From Candidatus Limimorpha sp. (lineage in GTDB: Bacteria; Bacteroidota; Bacteroidia; Bacteroidales; F082), in assembly GCA_045111995.1 (NCBI GenBank), contig JBGUHI010000034.1, positions 66,308 to 130,307 on the forward strand: DNA of 64,000 nt. The letters are read 5' to 3'. The position numbers were made by a program, and so were the translations under genes. Numbering within the stretch: the first letter of the stretch is position 1; the number at the start of each line of letters is the position of its first letter. A model generated the notes under the pieces. That model did no database searches. It had not been told where the DNA came from and saw only the letters and a program-made list of their open reading frames with translations. This document shows, in pieces, positions 3,232-61,774 of this stretch.

Positions 3232-4539
3232 ATGAAGAAACTGATTTTTAATGCTTTAGTTTTTACAGCAGCGTTTTTCATCCCCATTCTTGGACTGGCG
3301 CAAGAGCCTTTGCAACTTACGCTTGACCAGGCCTTGGAGATTGCGCTTTCGGAGAGCAACACCATCAAAATCGCGGACATGACCGTGGAAAAGACAGGCT
3401 ATGCGCAAAAAGGCAGCTATGCCGCGCTTTATCCGAATGTGAGCATCAACGGCTCGTATCAGCGCACCTTGCAGAAGCAGGTGATGGTGATGGACATGGG
3501 CGGCCAGCCGATGGAAATCAAGGTGGGCCGCGACAACAACATCAGCACCTCGGCCTCGGCCAGTATGCCTTTGGTGAACGCCCCGCTTTGGGAGAGCCTG
3601 AAACTGTCGGGCATGGATGTGGAACTCGCTGTGGAACAAGCCCGTTCATCGAAAATTGGGATGATCAAGCAGGTGAAGCAGGCTTTCTATGCCGTGCTGC
3701 TCGCCCAAAAGTCACATGACATGATGTCGCAAGTCTATGAGAACGCCCAAAAGAACTACGAGAAGACCGAACAGCGTTTCAACGTGGGCAAGGCCTCCGA
3801 AGTGGAACGCCTGCGCGCACAAGTGACAATGATGAACGCCGAACCGAATGTTTCGAGCGCGGAAAACGCGGTTTTGCTGGCCACATGGCAGCTGAAAGCC
3901 GTCATGGGCATCGACCTCGGCACCGAAATCGAGGTGGTCGGCGACCTGAATGACTACACCAACGAAATGCTCGCGCCTTTCGCCTCAGAAGACAACCTCG
4001 ACGGCAACAGCACTCTGCAACAACTTGACATCCAGAGCCGTATGCTCGAATCGACCATTCGGATGCAGAAGAAACAATACCTGCCGACACTCGCCGCGAG
4101 CATCAACTACAACTACAGCGCGATGGGCGACGACCAACTGAGCTGGTTCCCTTCCTCGACCGCCGCCTTGAGCCTCACCGTCCCCGTTTTCGACGGTTTC
4201 CAGAAACGCTACAACATCAAGCAGAGCAAGGTGACCAAGAACATGCTCGAACTGCAACGCGAGGACACGGAACGCAACCTGCGCATCGCCATCCGCAACT
4301 ACAACGACCAGATGGCGCTGTGTGTGACGAACTTCAAAGCCGCCAACAAGACGGTGGAAGCCGCCGAGAAAAGCTACCAAATCTCGGAAAAGATGTACGA
4401 AGTCGGAAAGACAACCTTGGTTGAACTGAACGACGCGCAACTGGCTTTGCAACAGGCGCAACTCAACCAAGCCCAAGCCGTTTACAACTTCATCGTGGCC
4501 AAAGCCTCGTTGGATGAATTAATTGGAAAAGAAGAATAA
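3232..4539 (+). CDS. TolC-family outer-membrane efflux protein
   Basis: Signal peptide, then LTLDQALEIALSESNTIK and two OEP-type repeats. First gene of an efflux operon. Confidence 0.9.
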   Translation: MKKLIFNALVFTAAFFIPILGLAQEPLQLTLDQALEIALSESNTIKIADMTVEKTGYAQKGSYAALYPNVSINGSYQRTLQKQVMVMDMGGQPMEIKVGRDNNISTSASASMPLVNAPLWESLKLSGMDVELAVEQARSSKIGMIKQVKQAFYAVLLAQKSHDMMSQVYENAQKNYEKTEQRFNVGKASEVERLRAQVTMMNAEPNVSSAENAVLLATWQLKAVMGIDLGTEIEVVGDLNDYTNEMLAPFASEDNLDGNSTLQQLDIQSRMLESTIRMQKKQYLPTLAASINYNYSAMGDDQLSWFPSSTAALSLTVPVFDGFQKRYNIKQSKVTKNMLELQREDTERNLRIAIRNYNDQMALCVTNFKAANKTVEAAEKSYQISEKMYEVGKTTLVELNDAQLALQQAQLNQAQAVYNFIVAKASLDELIGKEE

Positions 4540-4542
4540 GGC

Positions 4543-4694
4543 TATCAGCTGTCAGCTATCAGCCATCAGCCATCAGCAGTCAGCTGTCAGCTGTCAGCTA
4601 TCAGCTGAGTTGTTGCAAGCTGAAAGCTGATTGCTAAAAGCTAAAAGCTAATTGCTGAAAGCTGATTGCTGAAAGCTAAAAGCTAAAAGCTAAA
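4543..4694. repeat. Two-armed inverted heptanucleotide array (9 x NNTCAGC, 12-nt spacer, 11 x WGCTRAW)
   Basis: 4543-4605 is 9 exact 7-nt units ending in TCAGC. 4618-4694 is 11 units of agctgaa/agctaaa/tgctgaa, i.e. the complement family. The innermost units pair tcagct/agctga. Confidence 0.95.
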
Positions 4695-4716
4695 TAAGAA
4701 AACAAACTACAAATCA

Positions 4717-5745
4717 ATGAAATACAACAGACTAACCCTCATCACTCTCGCCGCTGCCCTGCTGATGACGGCTTGCGGCTCGAAAGACAGCTCAACCACC
4801 ACGACGACCCAACCAGCCGCACAAACTGCGCCCGTGGTCAGCGTCGTCACGGCACAGACCGAAGACGTGGATGTCACCAACACTTTCACCTCCAACGTGG
4901 AGCCTTTTGTCACGAACAACATCGCATCGCAGACGGCAGGCCGCATCGCGAGCATCAACGTGGAAGTGGGCAGCAATGTCCGCAAAGGACAACTGTTGGC
5001 CCGCATGGACGACGTGAACCTCGCCAAGACGCGGATGCAGTACGTCAACGACTCGACGGAACTGGCGCGCCTCACCGAGCTTTACAACATCGGCGCCATC
5101 GCGCAATCGGACTACGACATGGCCCGGCTCGCTTTGAACGTAACGAAAAAGACCTACCAGAACTTGGCCGAGAACACCTACCTCCGCAGCCCCATCAACG
5201 GTGTGGTGACCGCCCGCAACTACGACAAGGGCGACATGTACAGCATGGCCCAGCCCATCTTCGTGGTCGAGCAAATCACGCCCGTGAAGATGTTGGTCAA
5301 CGTTTCCGAGAGCCTGTTCACGCAAGTCCACGAAGGCATGGAGTTCGACATCACCGTGGACGCCTACCCGAATGAGGTCTTCAAAGGCAAGGTGAACCTG
5401 CTCTACCCCACCATCAATGCGGCCACGCACACCTTCCCCGTCGAGGTCATTTGTGAGAACAAGGACCAGAGGCTGCGTCCCGGCATGTTTGCCCGCGTGA
5501 CGGCCAACTTCGGCACCAACCACCATGTCGTGGTCCCCGATGTCGCCGTAGTCAAGCAGCAAGGCTCGGGCGAGCATTTCATCTATGTGCTCAACGCCGA
5601 CAACACCGTGACTTACACAAAGGTGGAACTTGGTCGCCGCTTGGGCAGCCGATACGAAATCCTCTCCGGCATCAACGAGGGCGACAGGATTGTCACCGAG
5701 GGACAAGTTAGACTGAAGAATGGAGTAAGTGTAACTGTTAAATGA
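4717..5745 (+). CDS. Efflux RND transporter periplasmic adaptor (MFP/HlyD family) lipoprotein
   Basis: Lipobox LLMTAC, an alpha-hairpin/barrel-sandwich-like sequence, and a position between TolC and the RND pump. Confidence 0.9.
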   Translation: MKYNRLTLITLAAALLMTACGSKDSSTTTTTQPAAQTAPVVSVVTAQTEDVDVTNTFTSNVEPFVTNNIASQTAGRIASINVEVGSNVRKGQLLARMDDVNLAKTRMQYVNDSTELARLTELYNIGAIAQSDYDMARLALNVTKKTYQNLAENTYLRSPINGVVTARNYDKGDMYSMAQPIFVVEQITPVKMLVNVSESLFTQVHEGMEFDITVDAYPNEVFKGKVNLLYPTINAATHTFPVEVICENKDQRLRPGMFARVTANFGTNHHVVVPDVAVVKQQGSGEHFIYVLNADNTVTYTKVELGRRLGSRYEILSGINEGDRIVTEGQVRLKNGVSVTVK

Positions 5746-5754
5746 CACGCTTTG

Positions 5755-5827
5755 CGTCATTGCGAGGAACGAAGCAATCCAGACCAAGCGCTAATTTCTG
5801 GATTGCCGCGCTCCGCTCGCAATGACG
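5755..5827. repeat. Nested palindromic REP/MITE-like element
   Basis: The outer 12-bp perfect inverted repeat is cgtcattgcgag (5755-5766) / ctcgcaatgacg (5816-5827). The inner 10-bp inverted repeat is gcaatccaga (5774-5783) / tctggattgc (5797-5806). Confidence 0.85.
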
Positions 5828-5856
5828 ACACTAAATAGAAAAACGAACAATAGAAT

Positions 5857-8991: not shown

Positions 8992-8997
8992 TTATTT

Positions 8998-9041
8998 GGC
9001 TGTTAGCCGTTAGCTATTAGCTATTAGCACGGCTGACAGCC
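8998..9041. repeat. Heptamer array (AGCYRTT units) with a local hairpin, 6 nt after the RND pump stop
   Basis: The sequence reads ggctgtt agccgtt agctatt agctatt agcacgg. ggctgttagcc (8998-9008) pairs with ggctgacagcc (9031-9041) with one G-U position. Confidence 0.9.
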
Positions 9042-9064
9042 AAATTATATGCATAGAAGTTTAT

Positions 9065-9415
9065 ATGAGAGATTTTCACAATTATAAGGTTTGGAATAAA
9101 GGGCATCAATTTGCCTTGAACATTTACAAAAAGACCAAATCTTTTCCGAAAGAAGAGTTGTTTGGGATTACCTCTCAACTTAGGCGAGCGGCAACTTCCA
9201 TTCCATTTAATATTGCCGAAGGATGTGGACGAAGAAGCGATGCTGAATTTGCTCATTTCCTGAACATTGCGGCTGGGTCTGCTTCTGAAGTCGAAGAAGA
9301 ACTTCTTTTGTCATACGACTTAGAGTATATGGATAAAGCCTCATATATTCAACTTAATGATGAGGTGAACGACATAAAAGCAATGCTAAACAAACTTATA
9401 GAAACCTTACATTAA
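9065..9415 (+). CDS. Four-helix-bundle protein (23S rRNA intervening-sequence protein / Avd-like family)
   Basis: The sequence FHNYKVWNKGHQFALNIYKKTKSFPKEELFGITSQLRRAATSIPFNIAEGCGRRSDAEFAHFLNIAAGSASEVEEEL matches the hallmark motifs of this family (SQ(L/I)RRAA.S...NIAEG, G S..E). Confidence 0.85.
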   Translation: MRDFHNYKVWNKGHQFALNIYKKTKSFPKEELFGITSQLRRAATSIPFNIAEGCGRRSDAEFAHFLNIAAGSASEVEEELLLSYDLEYMDKASYIQLNDEVNDIKAMLNKLIETLH

Positions 9416-9444
9416 AGCAATCAACCTAACACTACGTAAAATCA

Positions 9445-9479
9445 AGCTAATTGCTAACTGCTAATAGCTAACAGCTTAA
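9445..9479. repeat. Heptamer array (WGCTAAY units), inverted relative to 8998-9030
   Basis: The sequence reads agctaat tgctaac tgctaat agctaac agcttaa. gctaatagctaac (9460-9472) is the exact reverse complement of gttagctattagc (9009-9021). Confidence 0.9.
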
Positions 9480-9490
9480 AAATCACAAAC

Positions 9491-9786: not shown

Positions 9787-11166
9787 TTACTTCGACAGAA
9801 TCCGCTCCATCTGCGAAAGGGCAAACAAAGGACAAATCAGCACATGGCGGATAGCGTTGGAATCCTCGGGGGCGGAATAATCGAAAAATCCGAAATTCTC
9901 CAAAGAACACCTGACGGCCTTGTCAAGTTTCTTTTCGCGCATAAAGATCCAAAGGCTTTTCATGCCGCCTTGTGTTCCAGCCTTAACCTCGATAGGCAAA
10001 ACATTTGATTTGTCGTTGGTGACGTAGTCCACTTCGGCCAAAGAATTCTTGGATTGCCGAAGCCAATAATACATCTCGTGACGAATATTGGGAGTCTGAT
10101 AATGAAGCATTTCCAATCCTGCCACCATCTCTGCCATAGGGCCTTTGTTGACCAAATCGGCAACATCATCAGTAAGGATTTGTGTAGTCAGTTCCGAAAT
10201 GTCACCCATTGTCATGTTCAACAGGCGAAGCATCAGACCTGAGTCGAGTAGCAGCATCTTTCGGTAGGAATAGTTTGCCTCGCTGCCAAGCGGAAGCCCA
10301 TTGGCATTCGTGTGCGTGACCGGGACGACAATACCCGCTCGAATCAACAGTTCCAAGGCTTTCTTGACTTCGATGCCCTTATATTCGCCACCCACTTGCG
10401 AATAGACGAACTTCTTTGTGGCTTGCTCGGCCACACTGCGCATCGTCAGGCGTAGCAATACAGGATCTACTTTCTTCTTGTATTTCGGGAAATCGTCTTC
10501 GTAAGTCACGACAATGTCGTCCTGTACCTCTTGGCAGGCCAAATAGTCATGAGTTTCAACCCATTTGCCAACGGCTTCTGGCATCCCTCCAACGAGCATA
10601 TAAGTCCGCAAAAGCGCAACCAGTTTCAGGTACAATGGCTCTGGCAACGGTCGCTCCGATGTCGCTTGATTCCGTGCATCCATAAGTAATTGTTCGCCAT
10701 TGGCAACAAGAAACTCGTCGAAAGTCATCGGATACATATACATGGAATGGATGCGCCCAACGCCGAAAGTAGGCAGTTCCTCAAGAGCAAACTCCAACAA
10801 TGATCCAGCGGCTACAACGTGCAGGTCGGGCATGTCTTCCTTGAAAAACCGTAAGGCCATGATTGCTTCAGGACAGGCCTGAATTTCATCAAGAAAAAGG
10901 AGCGTTTTTCCAGCTTCTATTGGCTTTCCAGCAATCGCAGCCATTTGAGGCACAATTCTTTCCACATCAATATCGGCTTGAAACAACTGCTTGTATATTG
11001 GCTGTTTCTCAAAGTTGACCTCCACGAAATTCCCAAAGCGTTCAGCCAGATGATGAACCGCAGAAGATTTGCCCACTTGCCGAGCGCCGCGAAGCAACAA
11101 CGGCTTGTGTGAAGCGCGTGAAGCCCATTCCACCAAATACTTGTCAATCATTCTTGGATAATACAT
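9787..11166 (-). CDS. AAA+ ATPase with C-terminal DUF4143-type domain
   Basis: Walker A (LLLRGARQVGKSS) and Walker B (LLFLDEIQ). The size and C-terminal layout are typical of stand-alone AAA/DUF4143 proteins. Confidence 0.8.
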   Translation of the reverse strand: MYYPRMIDKYLVEWASRASHKPLLLRGARQVGKSSAVHHLAERFGNFVEVNFEKQPIYKQLFQADIDVERIVPQMAAIAGKPIEAGKTLLFLDEIQACPEAIMALRFFKEDMPDLHVVAAGSLLEFALEELPTFGVGRIHSMYMYPMTFDEFLVANGEQLLMDARNQATSERPLPEPLYLKLVALLRTYMLVGGMPEAVGKWVETHDYLACQEVQDDIVVTYEDDFPKYKKKVDPVLLRLTMRSVAEQATKKFVYSQVGGEYKGIEVKKALELLIRAGIVVPVTHTNANGLPLGSEANYSYRKMLLLDSGLMLRLLNMTMGDISELTTQILTDDVADLVNKGPMAEMVAGLEMLHYQTPNIRHEMYYWLRQSKNSLAEVDYVTNDKSNVLPIEVKAGTQGGMKSLWIFMREKKLDKAVRCSLENFGFFDYSAPEDSNAIRHVLICPLFALSQMERILSK

Positions 11167-31617: not shown

Positions 31618-31626
31618 ATCAATAGC

Positions 31627-31845
31627 TATCAGCTGTCAGCTGTCAGCAATCAGCTGTCAGCCATCAGCAATCAGCTGTCAGCCATCAGCAATCAGCTGTC
31701 AGCAATCAGCAATCAGCTGTCAGCAATCAGCAATCAGCAATCAGCAATCAGCTGTCAGCAATCAGCAATCAGCTGTCAGCTGTCAGCAATCAGCAGTCAG
31801 TAGTCAGCTGTCAGCCTCGGTTCAAACAAGCTGAGAGCTGAAAGC
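31627..31845. repeat. 27 tandem NNTCAGC heptamers (31627-31815) plus a short inverted arm agctgag agctgaa agc (31829-31845)
   Basis: Counted unit by unit. The units are tatcagc, tgtcagc, aatcagc, catcagc, agtcagc and one agtcagt. The phase never slips over 189 nt. Confidence 0.97.
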
Positions 31846-31861
31846 CCAAAAACAAAACACC

Positions 31862-38556: not shown

Positions 38557-38612
38557 GGATTTCAGATTTCAAGATTTAAAATTCAAGATTTTAGAGTTTC
38601 GGATTTCAAATC
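38557..38612. repeat. Degenerate heptamer array (RGATTTC-like, ~8 units) spanning the CPA2 stop / topB start junction
   Basis: The sequence reads ggatttc agatttc aagattt aaaattc aagattt tagagtt tcggatt tcaaatc. It overlaps the last ~10 codons of the 38583 gene. Confidence 0.7.
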
Positions 38613-61564: not shown

Positions 61565-61609
61565 TCTTTTCGTTTTTATGCAGGGACTTACGTCGCCTGC
61601 TTATTATAC

Positions 61610-61680
61610 GGCATCCGCCTATTTCCCCGACGTTTCGCGTCGTTTGGGCATCCGCCATTTTTCCCGACGTTTCACGTCGG
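61610..61680. repeat. Tandem ~34-nt repeat x2 (period 37), each with a hairpin
   Basis: Copy 1 is ggcatccgcctatttccccgacgtttcgcgtcg (61610-61642). Copy 2 is ggcatccgccatttttcccgacgtttcacgtcgg (61647-61680). The stems are cgacg/cgtcg and ccgacg/cgtcgg. Confidence 0.9.
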
Positions 61681-61714
61681 GCTGAATTAAATCGCCCTTT
61701 CAGGGCTTCCCTCC

Positions 61715-61770
61715 CACCTCCTAACTTCACACCTCATACCTCATACCTCAAACTTCACACCTCATACCTC
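61715..61770. repeat. 8 tandem heptamers (A[CTA]AC[CT]TC family) immediately 3' of the rarA stop
   Basis: The sequence reads cacctcc taacttc acacctc atacctc atacctc aaacttc acacctc atacctc, in exact 7-nt phase. Confidence 0.9.
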
Positions 61771-61774
61771 CCAA

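Follow-up and report, generated by a model that had tools for sequence, protein, structure and literature searches.

A heptamer-armed hairpin in a Bacteroidales efflux operon is probably a gene-less relative of intervening-sequence-like cassettes

Intergenic tandem heptamers are known from several bacterial groups, including the short tandemly repeated repetitive (STRR) sequences of heterocystous cyanobacteria and the TAACTGA repeats of Beggiatoaceae, Cyanobacteria and five Bacteroidetes (PMC4679880), while the GGGAATC repeats of Xanthomonas include 70-75 convergent pairs able to form stem-loops (PMC4692102). Another kind of stem is that of the intervening sequence (IVS) of 23S rRNA, and in Coxiella RNase III excises the stem of an IVS that bears a PF05635 gene (PMC4990558). 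Here we consider a 64,000-nt stretch of Candidatus Limimorpha sp. (GCA_045111995.1, contig JBGUHI010000034.1, positions 66,308 to 130,307), hereafter the window, in which a long hairpin with arms of tandem heptamers fills the gap between the TolC-family outer-membrane gene and the periplasmic adaptor gene of an efflux operon. On balance we favor the view that this hairpin is a gene-less (“solo”), slippage-prone member of a lineage-wide family of heptamer-armed palindromes and a derivative of IVS-like cassettes. It is hypervariable, probably selfish or neutral, and probably not a regulator made for this operon.

Like the heptameric simple sequence repeats (SSRs) of the STRR, TAACTGA and GGGAATC types, the repeats described here are tandem 7-nt units that lie almost exclusively between genes, mostly in co-directional gaps, that start near the upstream stop codon and that vary in length among close relatives. 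The tolC-adaptor element shows an excess of copies, belongs to a set of many arrays, and differs in copy number among relatives (2-11 units per arm). As in the paired inverted arrays of Xanthomonas, its two arms are convergent and close together, being of one unit family and 12 nt apart. Its units, however, follow the scheme RGC-YR-T-N, contain no G runs and are unable to form the G-quadruplexes of Xanthomonas-type units. Three further features set it apart from known heptamer repeats: a single lineage has many unit families with no relation to one another, several dispersed sites have a conserved apical loop in common, and the repeats are associated with PF05635 genes. We found no description in the open-access papers searched of an association of PF05635 or four-helix-bundle genes with heptamer or inverted repeats, and those on the known heptamers mention none.

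With the 23S rRNA IVS of Leptospira and Coxiella, the cassettes described below share a stem of terminal inverted repeats around a PF05635 gene, the existence of versions that lack the open reading frame (ORF), and a sporadic distribution, which has suggested mobility. In contrast to those IVS, the elements here lie between protein-coding cistrons (no rRNA is present in the window), their stems are built of heptamers with 5-6 paired positions per unit, and RNase III cleavage would apply to them by analogy. The tolC-adaptor copy also differs from ORF-bearing IVS in having a 12-nt loop and no ORF, although a sister element at 8992-9490 does have one. Short palindromes dispersed between co-directional genes, a shared sequence (the loop) and polymorphic presence likewise recall repetitive extragenic palindromic (REP) sequences and the bacterial interspersed mosaic elements (BIMEs) and REP doublets (REPINs) related to them, as well as MITEs (miniature transposable elements bearing inverted repeats), elements which sometimes stabilize upstream mRNA; the arms here, however, are variable-length tandem arrays and not a fixed sequence. 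Eukaryotic foldback transposons also have long inverted arms of short tandem sub-repeats, variable in length and sometimes with a coding middle, but they greatly exceed the present hairpin in size and their full-length copies have a known transposase, so that the analogy is one of architecture only.

A reading of the sequence alone had described the tolC-adaptor gap as nine NNTCAGC units, a 12-nt spacer and eleven WGCTRAW units ahead of an adaptor ATG at 4717, and direct reading of positions 4400-4820 reproduces this layout exactly. The TCAGC core is invariant in all nine left-arm units (4543-4605), the right arm consists of five GCTGA and six GCTAA units, and the hairpin as a whole spans 154 bases. 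Tandem Repeats Finder reports period 7 in both arms (4541-4606, 9.4 copies, 88% matches; 4617-4694, 11.1 copies), and, at a higher order, a period of 35 nt within the right arm (1.9 copies, 96% identity), where a block of five units was recently duplicated. An inverted-repeat finder pairs 4541-4606 with 4625-4690 at 77% complementarity. The sequence-only reading had predicted that the arms zipper into a very long imperfect hairpin and had called for folding both strands of 4535-4700; the predicted RNA folds are stable on the + strand (-72.6 kcal/mol, z -6.7) and on the - strand (-82.2 kcal/mol, z -8.4), the + strand DNA fold is stable as well (-39.7 kcal/mol, z -5.3), and in each of the three none of 200 shuffles reaches the observed energy. 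The advantage of the - strand fits the presence of C-A mismatches on the + strand versus G-U pairs on the - strand at the GCTAA units. Allowing at most one mismatch, TCAGCNNTCAGCNNTCAGC (three consecutive TCAGCNN units) has 36 matches in the window against 0.01 expected. The element is a genuine long imperfect palindrome, and chance is excluded as its origin.

Other identities for the hairpin were considered. An intrinsic terminator is rejected, as a consensus scan for terminators and promoters called no site at 4540-4716 and the hairpin tail is AATAAGAAAAC, with no T run after the stem. By eye, the window's tolC-adaptor gap has no Bacteroidetes-type TAnnTTTG box. Rfam 15 gives no match at the hairpin at gathering score, and a permissive search returns only generic miRNA-precursor hairpins far under threshold. 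A CRISPR-like array is rejected because unique spacers are absent.

Comparison of orthologous junctions shows how unstable the occupancy of this gap is. With the adaptor protein we retrieved 65 loci (74-89% identity; numbered with the prefix L below) from metagenome-assembled genomes (MAGs) of rumen and hindgut Bacteroidales, namely Ca. Limimorpha and RUG/RGIG genomes. Twenty-six of the 65 tolC-adaptor junctions are empty (11-33 nt; for example “aaacatacaaatca” in L012), 25 hold heptamer arrays, and 14 hold unrelated hairpin inserts, among them two REP-like hairpins and a 200-nt MITE-like element. Nearly all of the 25 heptamer-filled junctions (including those of the window, L004 and L024) have inverted arms, and those of the window are the longest at this junction; the closest junction sequences (L023, L277) have 4-5 units per arm. 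The states are patchily distributed on the adaptor tree, with L024 filled and L025 and L026 empty, and L004 and L009 carry TCAGC-type arms versus TTGGC-type arms with a different loop in L015, in almost identical flanking coding sequence. Occupancy, arm length and unit type of the junction turn over between near-identical genomes. The A-rich leader ahead of the adaptor ATG is nonetheless retained in every filled junction. These observations, together with the block duplications, give good support to the earlier suggestion that the array is a replication or recombination hotspot; the orthologue comparison that had been proposed alongside it finds presence, absence and arm length all varying, though with a third state, the unrelated inserts.

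A separate observation concerns a third array, of 3-8 TTGAATN units, which follows the hairpin in many orthologues (for example L004, L009, L010, L020, L281), though not in the window. Some copies of this array (gcTAATTTTGaat) contain a sequence that fits the Bacteroidetes -7 promoter box, TAnnTTTG, and could, judging from this motif, create an internal promoter.

The hairpin belongs to a general excess of period-7 arrays. There are seven lag-7 arrays in the window, versus none in its mononucleotide shuffles, and 84 in the 802 kb made up of the window and the 65 orthologous loci, where lags 5, 6 and 8-11 give 0-5; a control of 854 kb from unrelated bacteria, consisting of the chance matches of the first genome-wide pattern scan described below, contains eight. 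Between co-directional genes lie 74 of the 84, and 82 are outside coding sequence, with two inside it; typically they begin a few bases past the upstream stop codon and finish a few bases short of the next ATG. Arrays of 7-nt units, often in inverted pairs, are the usual filling of co-directional gene gaps in this clade. They are hotspots of assembly collapse and length polymorphism within rumen Bacteroidales operons.

The arms also covary. Left-arm units across the orthologous junctions fit RGC-YR-T-N, and the paired cores are TCAGC with GCTGA in ten loci, TTGGC or CTGGC with GCCAA or GCCAG in five, TTAGC with GCTAA in two, and, complementary at four of five positions, TAAGC with GCTAA or GCTGA in three. 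The 5-nt cores of the two arms therefore stay complementary across several unit families, while the spacer dinucleotides are not complementary, which results in 5-6 pairs per 7 positions. The numbers of left and right units correlate (rho 0.54, p 0.012, shared ancestry not being corrected for). A mirror order of unit variants between the arms, as expected if one arm had been copied from the other, was not seen in the cassette arms of L016 that were inspected. The contrast between C-A and G-U pairs that the sequence-only reading had drawn holds for the window and is not general: over 24 orthologous hairpins there are 47 G-U pairs in sense and 47 in antisense, and the sense strand folds better in eight and worse in 16, with a mean energy difference of 0.5 kcal/mol. 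Sense-strand G-U enrichment as a sign of selection at the RNA level is rejected, the test being uninformative at 47 versus 47; because the counts are equal, the sequence gives no evidence of selection on the sense RNA in particular.

The loop of the hairpin connects it to copies elsewhere. In the TCAGC, TTAGC and TAAGC versions of the tolC-adaptor junction the apical loop is conserved as TCAGTTGYTGC(C)A, and in genome and metagenome scans an identical 13-nt loop, TCAGTTGCTGCCA, flanked by arms of these families, turned up at four junction types: tolC-adaptor, atpH-atpA (L191, L194), the gap between two hdr-like genes (L136, L275, L192), and a site upstream of a gene for a 768-aa protein (L193). 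At the hdr-like site there are two full tandem hairpins, each with a TTGAAWN array after it (L136, 560-745; L275, about 4230-4410 of the matched strand). A close variant of the loop occurs at the adaptor-RND junction, which precedes the gene for the resistance-nodulation-division (RND) pump, in L026, L036 and L064. At every site type (6 of 6, a number that makes for weak statistics) the dispersed copies are in sense orientation, placed after a stop codon and before the following ATG. An identical unpaired loop at unrelated sites points to copying, by transposition or gene conversion, and not to independent slippage. Three scans define this sample: a first genome-wide pattern scan with 17 specified bases gave four real copies among 120 matches, the rest being chance; the TGCAAGCT variant escaped a second genome-wide scan, which demanded 1-2 additional bases in the loop; and a metagenome scan with N{0,1} gave mostly more tolC-adaptor copies plus the hdr-like site.

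A link to a known kind of element comes from the same operon. Between the RND gene and the downstream PG0541-family gene lies a 499-nt cassette (8992-9490) in which two inverted heptamer arrays surround a PF05635 gene, and in its predicted minimum free energy fold 8998-9028 pairs with 9446-9476 around the entire ORF; the array duplex has an energy of -40.8 kcal/mol, versus -14.1 +/- 3.7 for shuffles. The cassette is present at the RND-PG0541 junction of about 14 orthologous operons and missing from most. Among 27 close PF05635 homologues, which were fetched independently, 26 have complementary heptamer flanks that score over every shuffle, and 12 of the close homologues' cassettes lie at a different site, between PhoU_div and NAPRTase genes (L195-L199, L201-L205, L210 and others). 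The PF05635 protein tree has three clades that match the arm families TTAGC, TAAGC and TCAGC, and the TTAGC clade occurs at two sites, indicating that the arms accompany the gene and that the pair has moved between sites.

Gene-less forms can be recognized at both sites. In L036 (10266-10348) the RND-PG0541 junction keeps the 3' flank of the cassette, comprising the hairpin and the post-stop bases “taaccataaag”, with the ORF and the left array gone; this insert is a deletion derivative of the cassette. In the window itself, the PhoU_div-NAPRTase gap holds a second TCAGC-type element (31620-31846) with no gene inside and merely 2-3 right-arm units, whose long left array (31620-31815) has a 21-nt higher-order period and whose outer ends are homologous to those of the PhoU_div-NAPRTase cassettes. 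The same arm families thus enclose a PF05635 gene as a unit, and gene-less deletion derivatives of the cassette exist.

The association extends well beyond this lineage. About 24 of 53 more distant homologues have flank complementarity above all shuffles, in Chitinophagaceae, Azobacteroides, Gastranaerophilales, Verrucomicrobia, Gemmatimonadales, Elusimicrobia and an alphaproteobacterial MAG, and the 17 distant loci inspected have 3-6 inverted heptamers of unrelated units (TAAGTNN/ACTTANN, GTGAGCN/GCTCACN, GTGAANN/TTCACNN). Over 80 loci, the density of lag-7 arrays in the 150 nt next to PF05635 gene ends is 21 times that of the remaining sequence. The closest solved structure to the window's PF05635 protein is Xanthomonas XCC0516 (PDB 2GSC). 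In Xanthomonas campestris a GGGAATC array lies between bccP (XCC0517) and XCC0516, 6 nt from bccP and overlapping the annotated XCC0516 start (supplement of PMC4692102, Rehm et al. 2015), where the gene family is not commented on. This array provides independent support for the link between PF05635 and heptamers.

We propose the following history for the tolC-adaptor hairpin. Its arms would lengthen and shorten by 7-nt slipped-strand mispairing and by block duplication; the polymorphism and the duplications are observed, and a slippage mechanism agrees with the published proposal of polymerase slippage for heptamers. Arm complementarity may be upheld by selection on the stem, by quasipalindrome template-switch correction, or by both. 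Template-switch correction of quasipalindromes is a known mutational mechanism in E. coli. The element would be tolerated because of its exact placement, past the stop codon yet ahead of the A-rich leader (roughly 20 nt) of the following gene; the simplest source of its sense orientation is a parent cassette whose gene relies on host transcription. The stem should form in mRNA, where by analogy with the stem of the 23S rRNA IVS it may be cleaved by RNase III or block 3' exonucleases, so that a generic effect on mRNA processing or stability is plausible. On this view the element is selfish or neutral, and a change in the ratio of TolC to adaptor and pump, if there is one, would be incidental to it; since 26 of 65 junctions are empty, any effect on mRNA is not a conserved feature of the operon.

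Several observations weigh against descent from a cassette or against neutrality. A four-helix-bundle gene occurs at the tolC-adaptor junction itself in none of the orthologues, and descent of this copy from a cassette is suggested by its arm families, its orientation and a loop that agrees with cassette-derived loops at 7-8 of 12 positions, with no remnant of the gene. The spacer dinucleotides of the right arm (AA, TT, GA) differ from the exact YR complement of cassette arms. Alignment of filled and empty junctions places AATAAG on both sides of the window's hairpin, but as the flanks are A-rich this target-site duplication is only suggested and could be chance. No transposase or other mobility enzyme (of the REP-associated tyrosine transposase, RAYT, or insertion sequence, IS, type) was noticed in the window, no search having been aimed at one, and PF05635 has no known catalytic role. 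Some hairpin-type insert is present at 39 of the 65 junctions, which could mean that a hairpin is mildly favored there, and the parity of G-U pairs speaks neither for nor against an RNA role and lends it no positive support. Finally, the sample of loci is built around one operon, and repeats may be collapsed in MAG assemblies.

A broader form of this proposal is more tentative. PF05635 genes may be the cargo of widespread mobile IVS-like cassettes with inverted heptamer arms, located between cistrons in Bacteroidota, Verrucomicrobiota, Gemmatimonadota, Elusimicrobiota, Melainabacteria-like cyanobacteria and Xanthomonas, with hairpins such as the present one being their gene-less derivatives and the protein acting on the stems; we regard this as a possibility worth entertaining, at less than even odds. 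If it is true, part of the bacterial excess of intergenic heptamers traces to such cassettes, and the action of the protein on heptamer stems would be RNA processing or DNA mobility. Two old puzzles are touched here, the dominance of heptamers among long intergenic SSRs of bacteria and the role of the PF05635 “intervening-sequence” proteins; the presence of a PF05635 gene inside inverted heptamer stems at several sites and in distant phyla, together with the gene-less stems that remain, ties both together. The pattern supplies a simple sequence signature for finding such elements, and we consider the link between gene and repeat across phyla to be the part that deserves pursuit.

An alternative hypothesis is that the hairpin is an adaptive, operon-specific RNA determinant, selected as a processing site or 3'-end stabilizer that gives the TolC and adaptor/pump mRNAs different lifetimes, and this is close to the sequence-only reading, which considered it well placed to uncouple TolC from adaptor and pump expression. 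The high stability of the sense-strand stem (-72.6 kcal/mol), its position right after the stop codon with a free 22-nt leader left, the hairpin-type inserts at 39 of 65 junctions, the hairpins at all three junctions of the window's operon and the sense orientation of all dispersed copies speak for it. However, the empty junctions include those of genomes with almost identical flanking genes, and the inserts that are present are unrelated in sequence, 14 of them being hairpins of other kinds. The same kind of element recurs in unrelated operons (ATP synthase, the hdr-like pair, PhoU_div-NAPRTase), there is no terminator-like tail or promoter-like site in the gap, no sense G-U enrichment is found and 16 of 24 hairpins fold slightly better in antisense, and a host-transcribed cassette as ancestor accounts for the sense orientation just as well. 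Specific support for uncoupling is thus wanting, and we judge a determinant of this kind to be unlikely. The consequence for the efflux operon is deflating: conserved regulation of TolC versus pump expression is not what the hairpin provides, and it is better annotated as a repeat element.

It is similarly improbable, in our estimation, that the element is purely an SSR by-product, a small local palindrome (the AGCT in the unit) expanded by 7-nt slippage with no mobility, no kinship to cassettes and no role in the transcript. Slippage has several points in its favor: in many bacteria no other long SSR class is as over-represented as heptamers (Mrazek 2007, as cited in PMC4679880), polymerase slippage has been proposed as the cause (PMC4679880, PMC4692102), block duplications occur within the arms, and one-sided arrays exist (L001; window 31620-31815). 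Arrays can also originate in place via 7-nt duplication, as follows from the direct, purine-rich heptamer arrays (GAGATAA, GAGTTAA, GAATTAA) that fill the 16-35 nt RND-PG0541 gap at about 10190-10240 (locus coordinates) in L038, L051, L054 and L061-L063, some of which look as if they had grown from the final 7 nt of the RND gene, stop codon included (...TAGATAA GAGATAA TAGATAA...; stop context AGATAA in L038, L051 and L063). But local slippage fails to explain an identical 13-nt unpaired loop at non-homologous junctions, the cores covary outside AGCT and in families without a palindromic core, and the strong association with PF05635 includes the cassette remnant in L036. The least likely alternative is that the heptamers are iteron-like sites in DNA or in an RNA stem, perhaps for a pentameric form of the cassette's four-helix-bundle protein that the hairpin would titrate or recruit, for although the protein clades match the arm families, PF05635 is homologous to Avd, a binder of nucleic acid and reverse transcriptase (PMC10053308, and general knowledge), 2GSC was deposited with five chains and the 21-nt period of the array at 31.6 kb equals two helical turns of DNA, co-inheritance of gene and arms accounts for the clade match without binding, the binding itself is putative, and these genomes also have arrays of unrelated heptamers at a great distance from every PF05635 gene.

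Table 1. Genes, hairpins and heptamer arrays of the window (coordinates within the 64,000-nt stretch).
Feature	Position	Strand	Remarks
TolC-family outer-membrane efflux gene, 435 aa	3232..4539	+	Pfam OEP PF02321, E 2e-58; stop TAA 4537-4539
Hairpin left arm, nine full NNTCAGC heptamers (scheme RGC-YR-T-C)	4541..4605	+	starts 1-4 nt past the TolC stop
Hairpin apical loop, 12 nt, TGAGTTGTTGCA	4606..4617	+	homologous to TCAGTTGYTGC(C)A of orthologous junctions and other-locus copies
Hairpin right arm, eleven WGCTRAW heptamers (AGCTGAA, AGCTGAT, TGCTAAA...)	4618..4694	+	
A-rich leader without structure, hairpin to adaptor ATG, 22 nt	4695..4716	+	in empty junctions, the entire 11-15 nt gap corresponds to it
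Membrane-fusion (periplasmic adaptor) gene, 342 aa	4717..5745	+	Pfam HlyD_D23 / HlyD_3
Non-heptamer hairpin (cattgcgag...ctcgcaatgac) filling the adaptor-RND gap	5753..5830	+	fold -39.4 kcal/mol
RND inner-membrane pump gene, 1044 aa	5857..8991	+	Pfam ACR_tran, E 6e-255
Left heptamer array of cassette (GCYRTTA x4-5)	8996..9030	+	also pairs locally with 9031-9045
PF05635 / TIGR02436 four-helix-bundle gene, 116 aa	9065..9415	+	family of the 23S rRNA IVS ORF and of Avd of diversity-generating retroelements
Right heptamer array of cassette (GCTAANN x4)	9446..9476	+	reverse complement of 8996-9030
PG0541-family transporter-associated gene, 97 aa	9491..9784	+	weak P-II fold match
Second TCAGC-type element, PhoU_div-NAPRTase	31620..31846	+	27 left units 31620-31815; loop CTCGGTTCAAACA 31816-31828; right units 31829-31846
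TCTTGAA-type heptamer array	38558-38608		between - strand genes
GAGGTRT-type heptamer array	61721-61764	-	between - strand genes

The remaining junctions of the efflux operon (Table 1) have their own variety of fillings among the orthologues. The adaptor-RND junction is empty in 10 of 51 and holds direct heptamer arrays in another 10 of 51, with hairpins in most others; several of these hairpins have heptamer arms, drawn from four other unit families. Cores of the form “attgcgg...ccgcaatga”, related to the non-heptamer hairpin at this junction of the window, are found within the loop of heptamer hairpins from L018 and L021. At the RND-PG0541 junction the PG0541-family gene starts 2-3 nt after the RND stop in about 28 orthologues, an overlap-type spacing which suggests translational coupling that insertion of the cassette would break, and other loci have direct arrays, a hairpin or the gene cassette there.

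Elsewhere in the window, at 61565-61774, the GAGGTRT-type array adjoins two small cccgacg...cgtcggg hairpins, one of which (61663-61707) matches the Rfam family Acido-Lenti-1 at 42 bits, the gathering score being 37.

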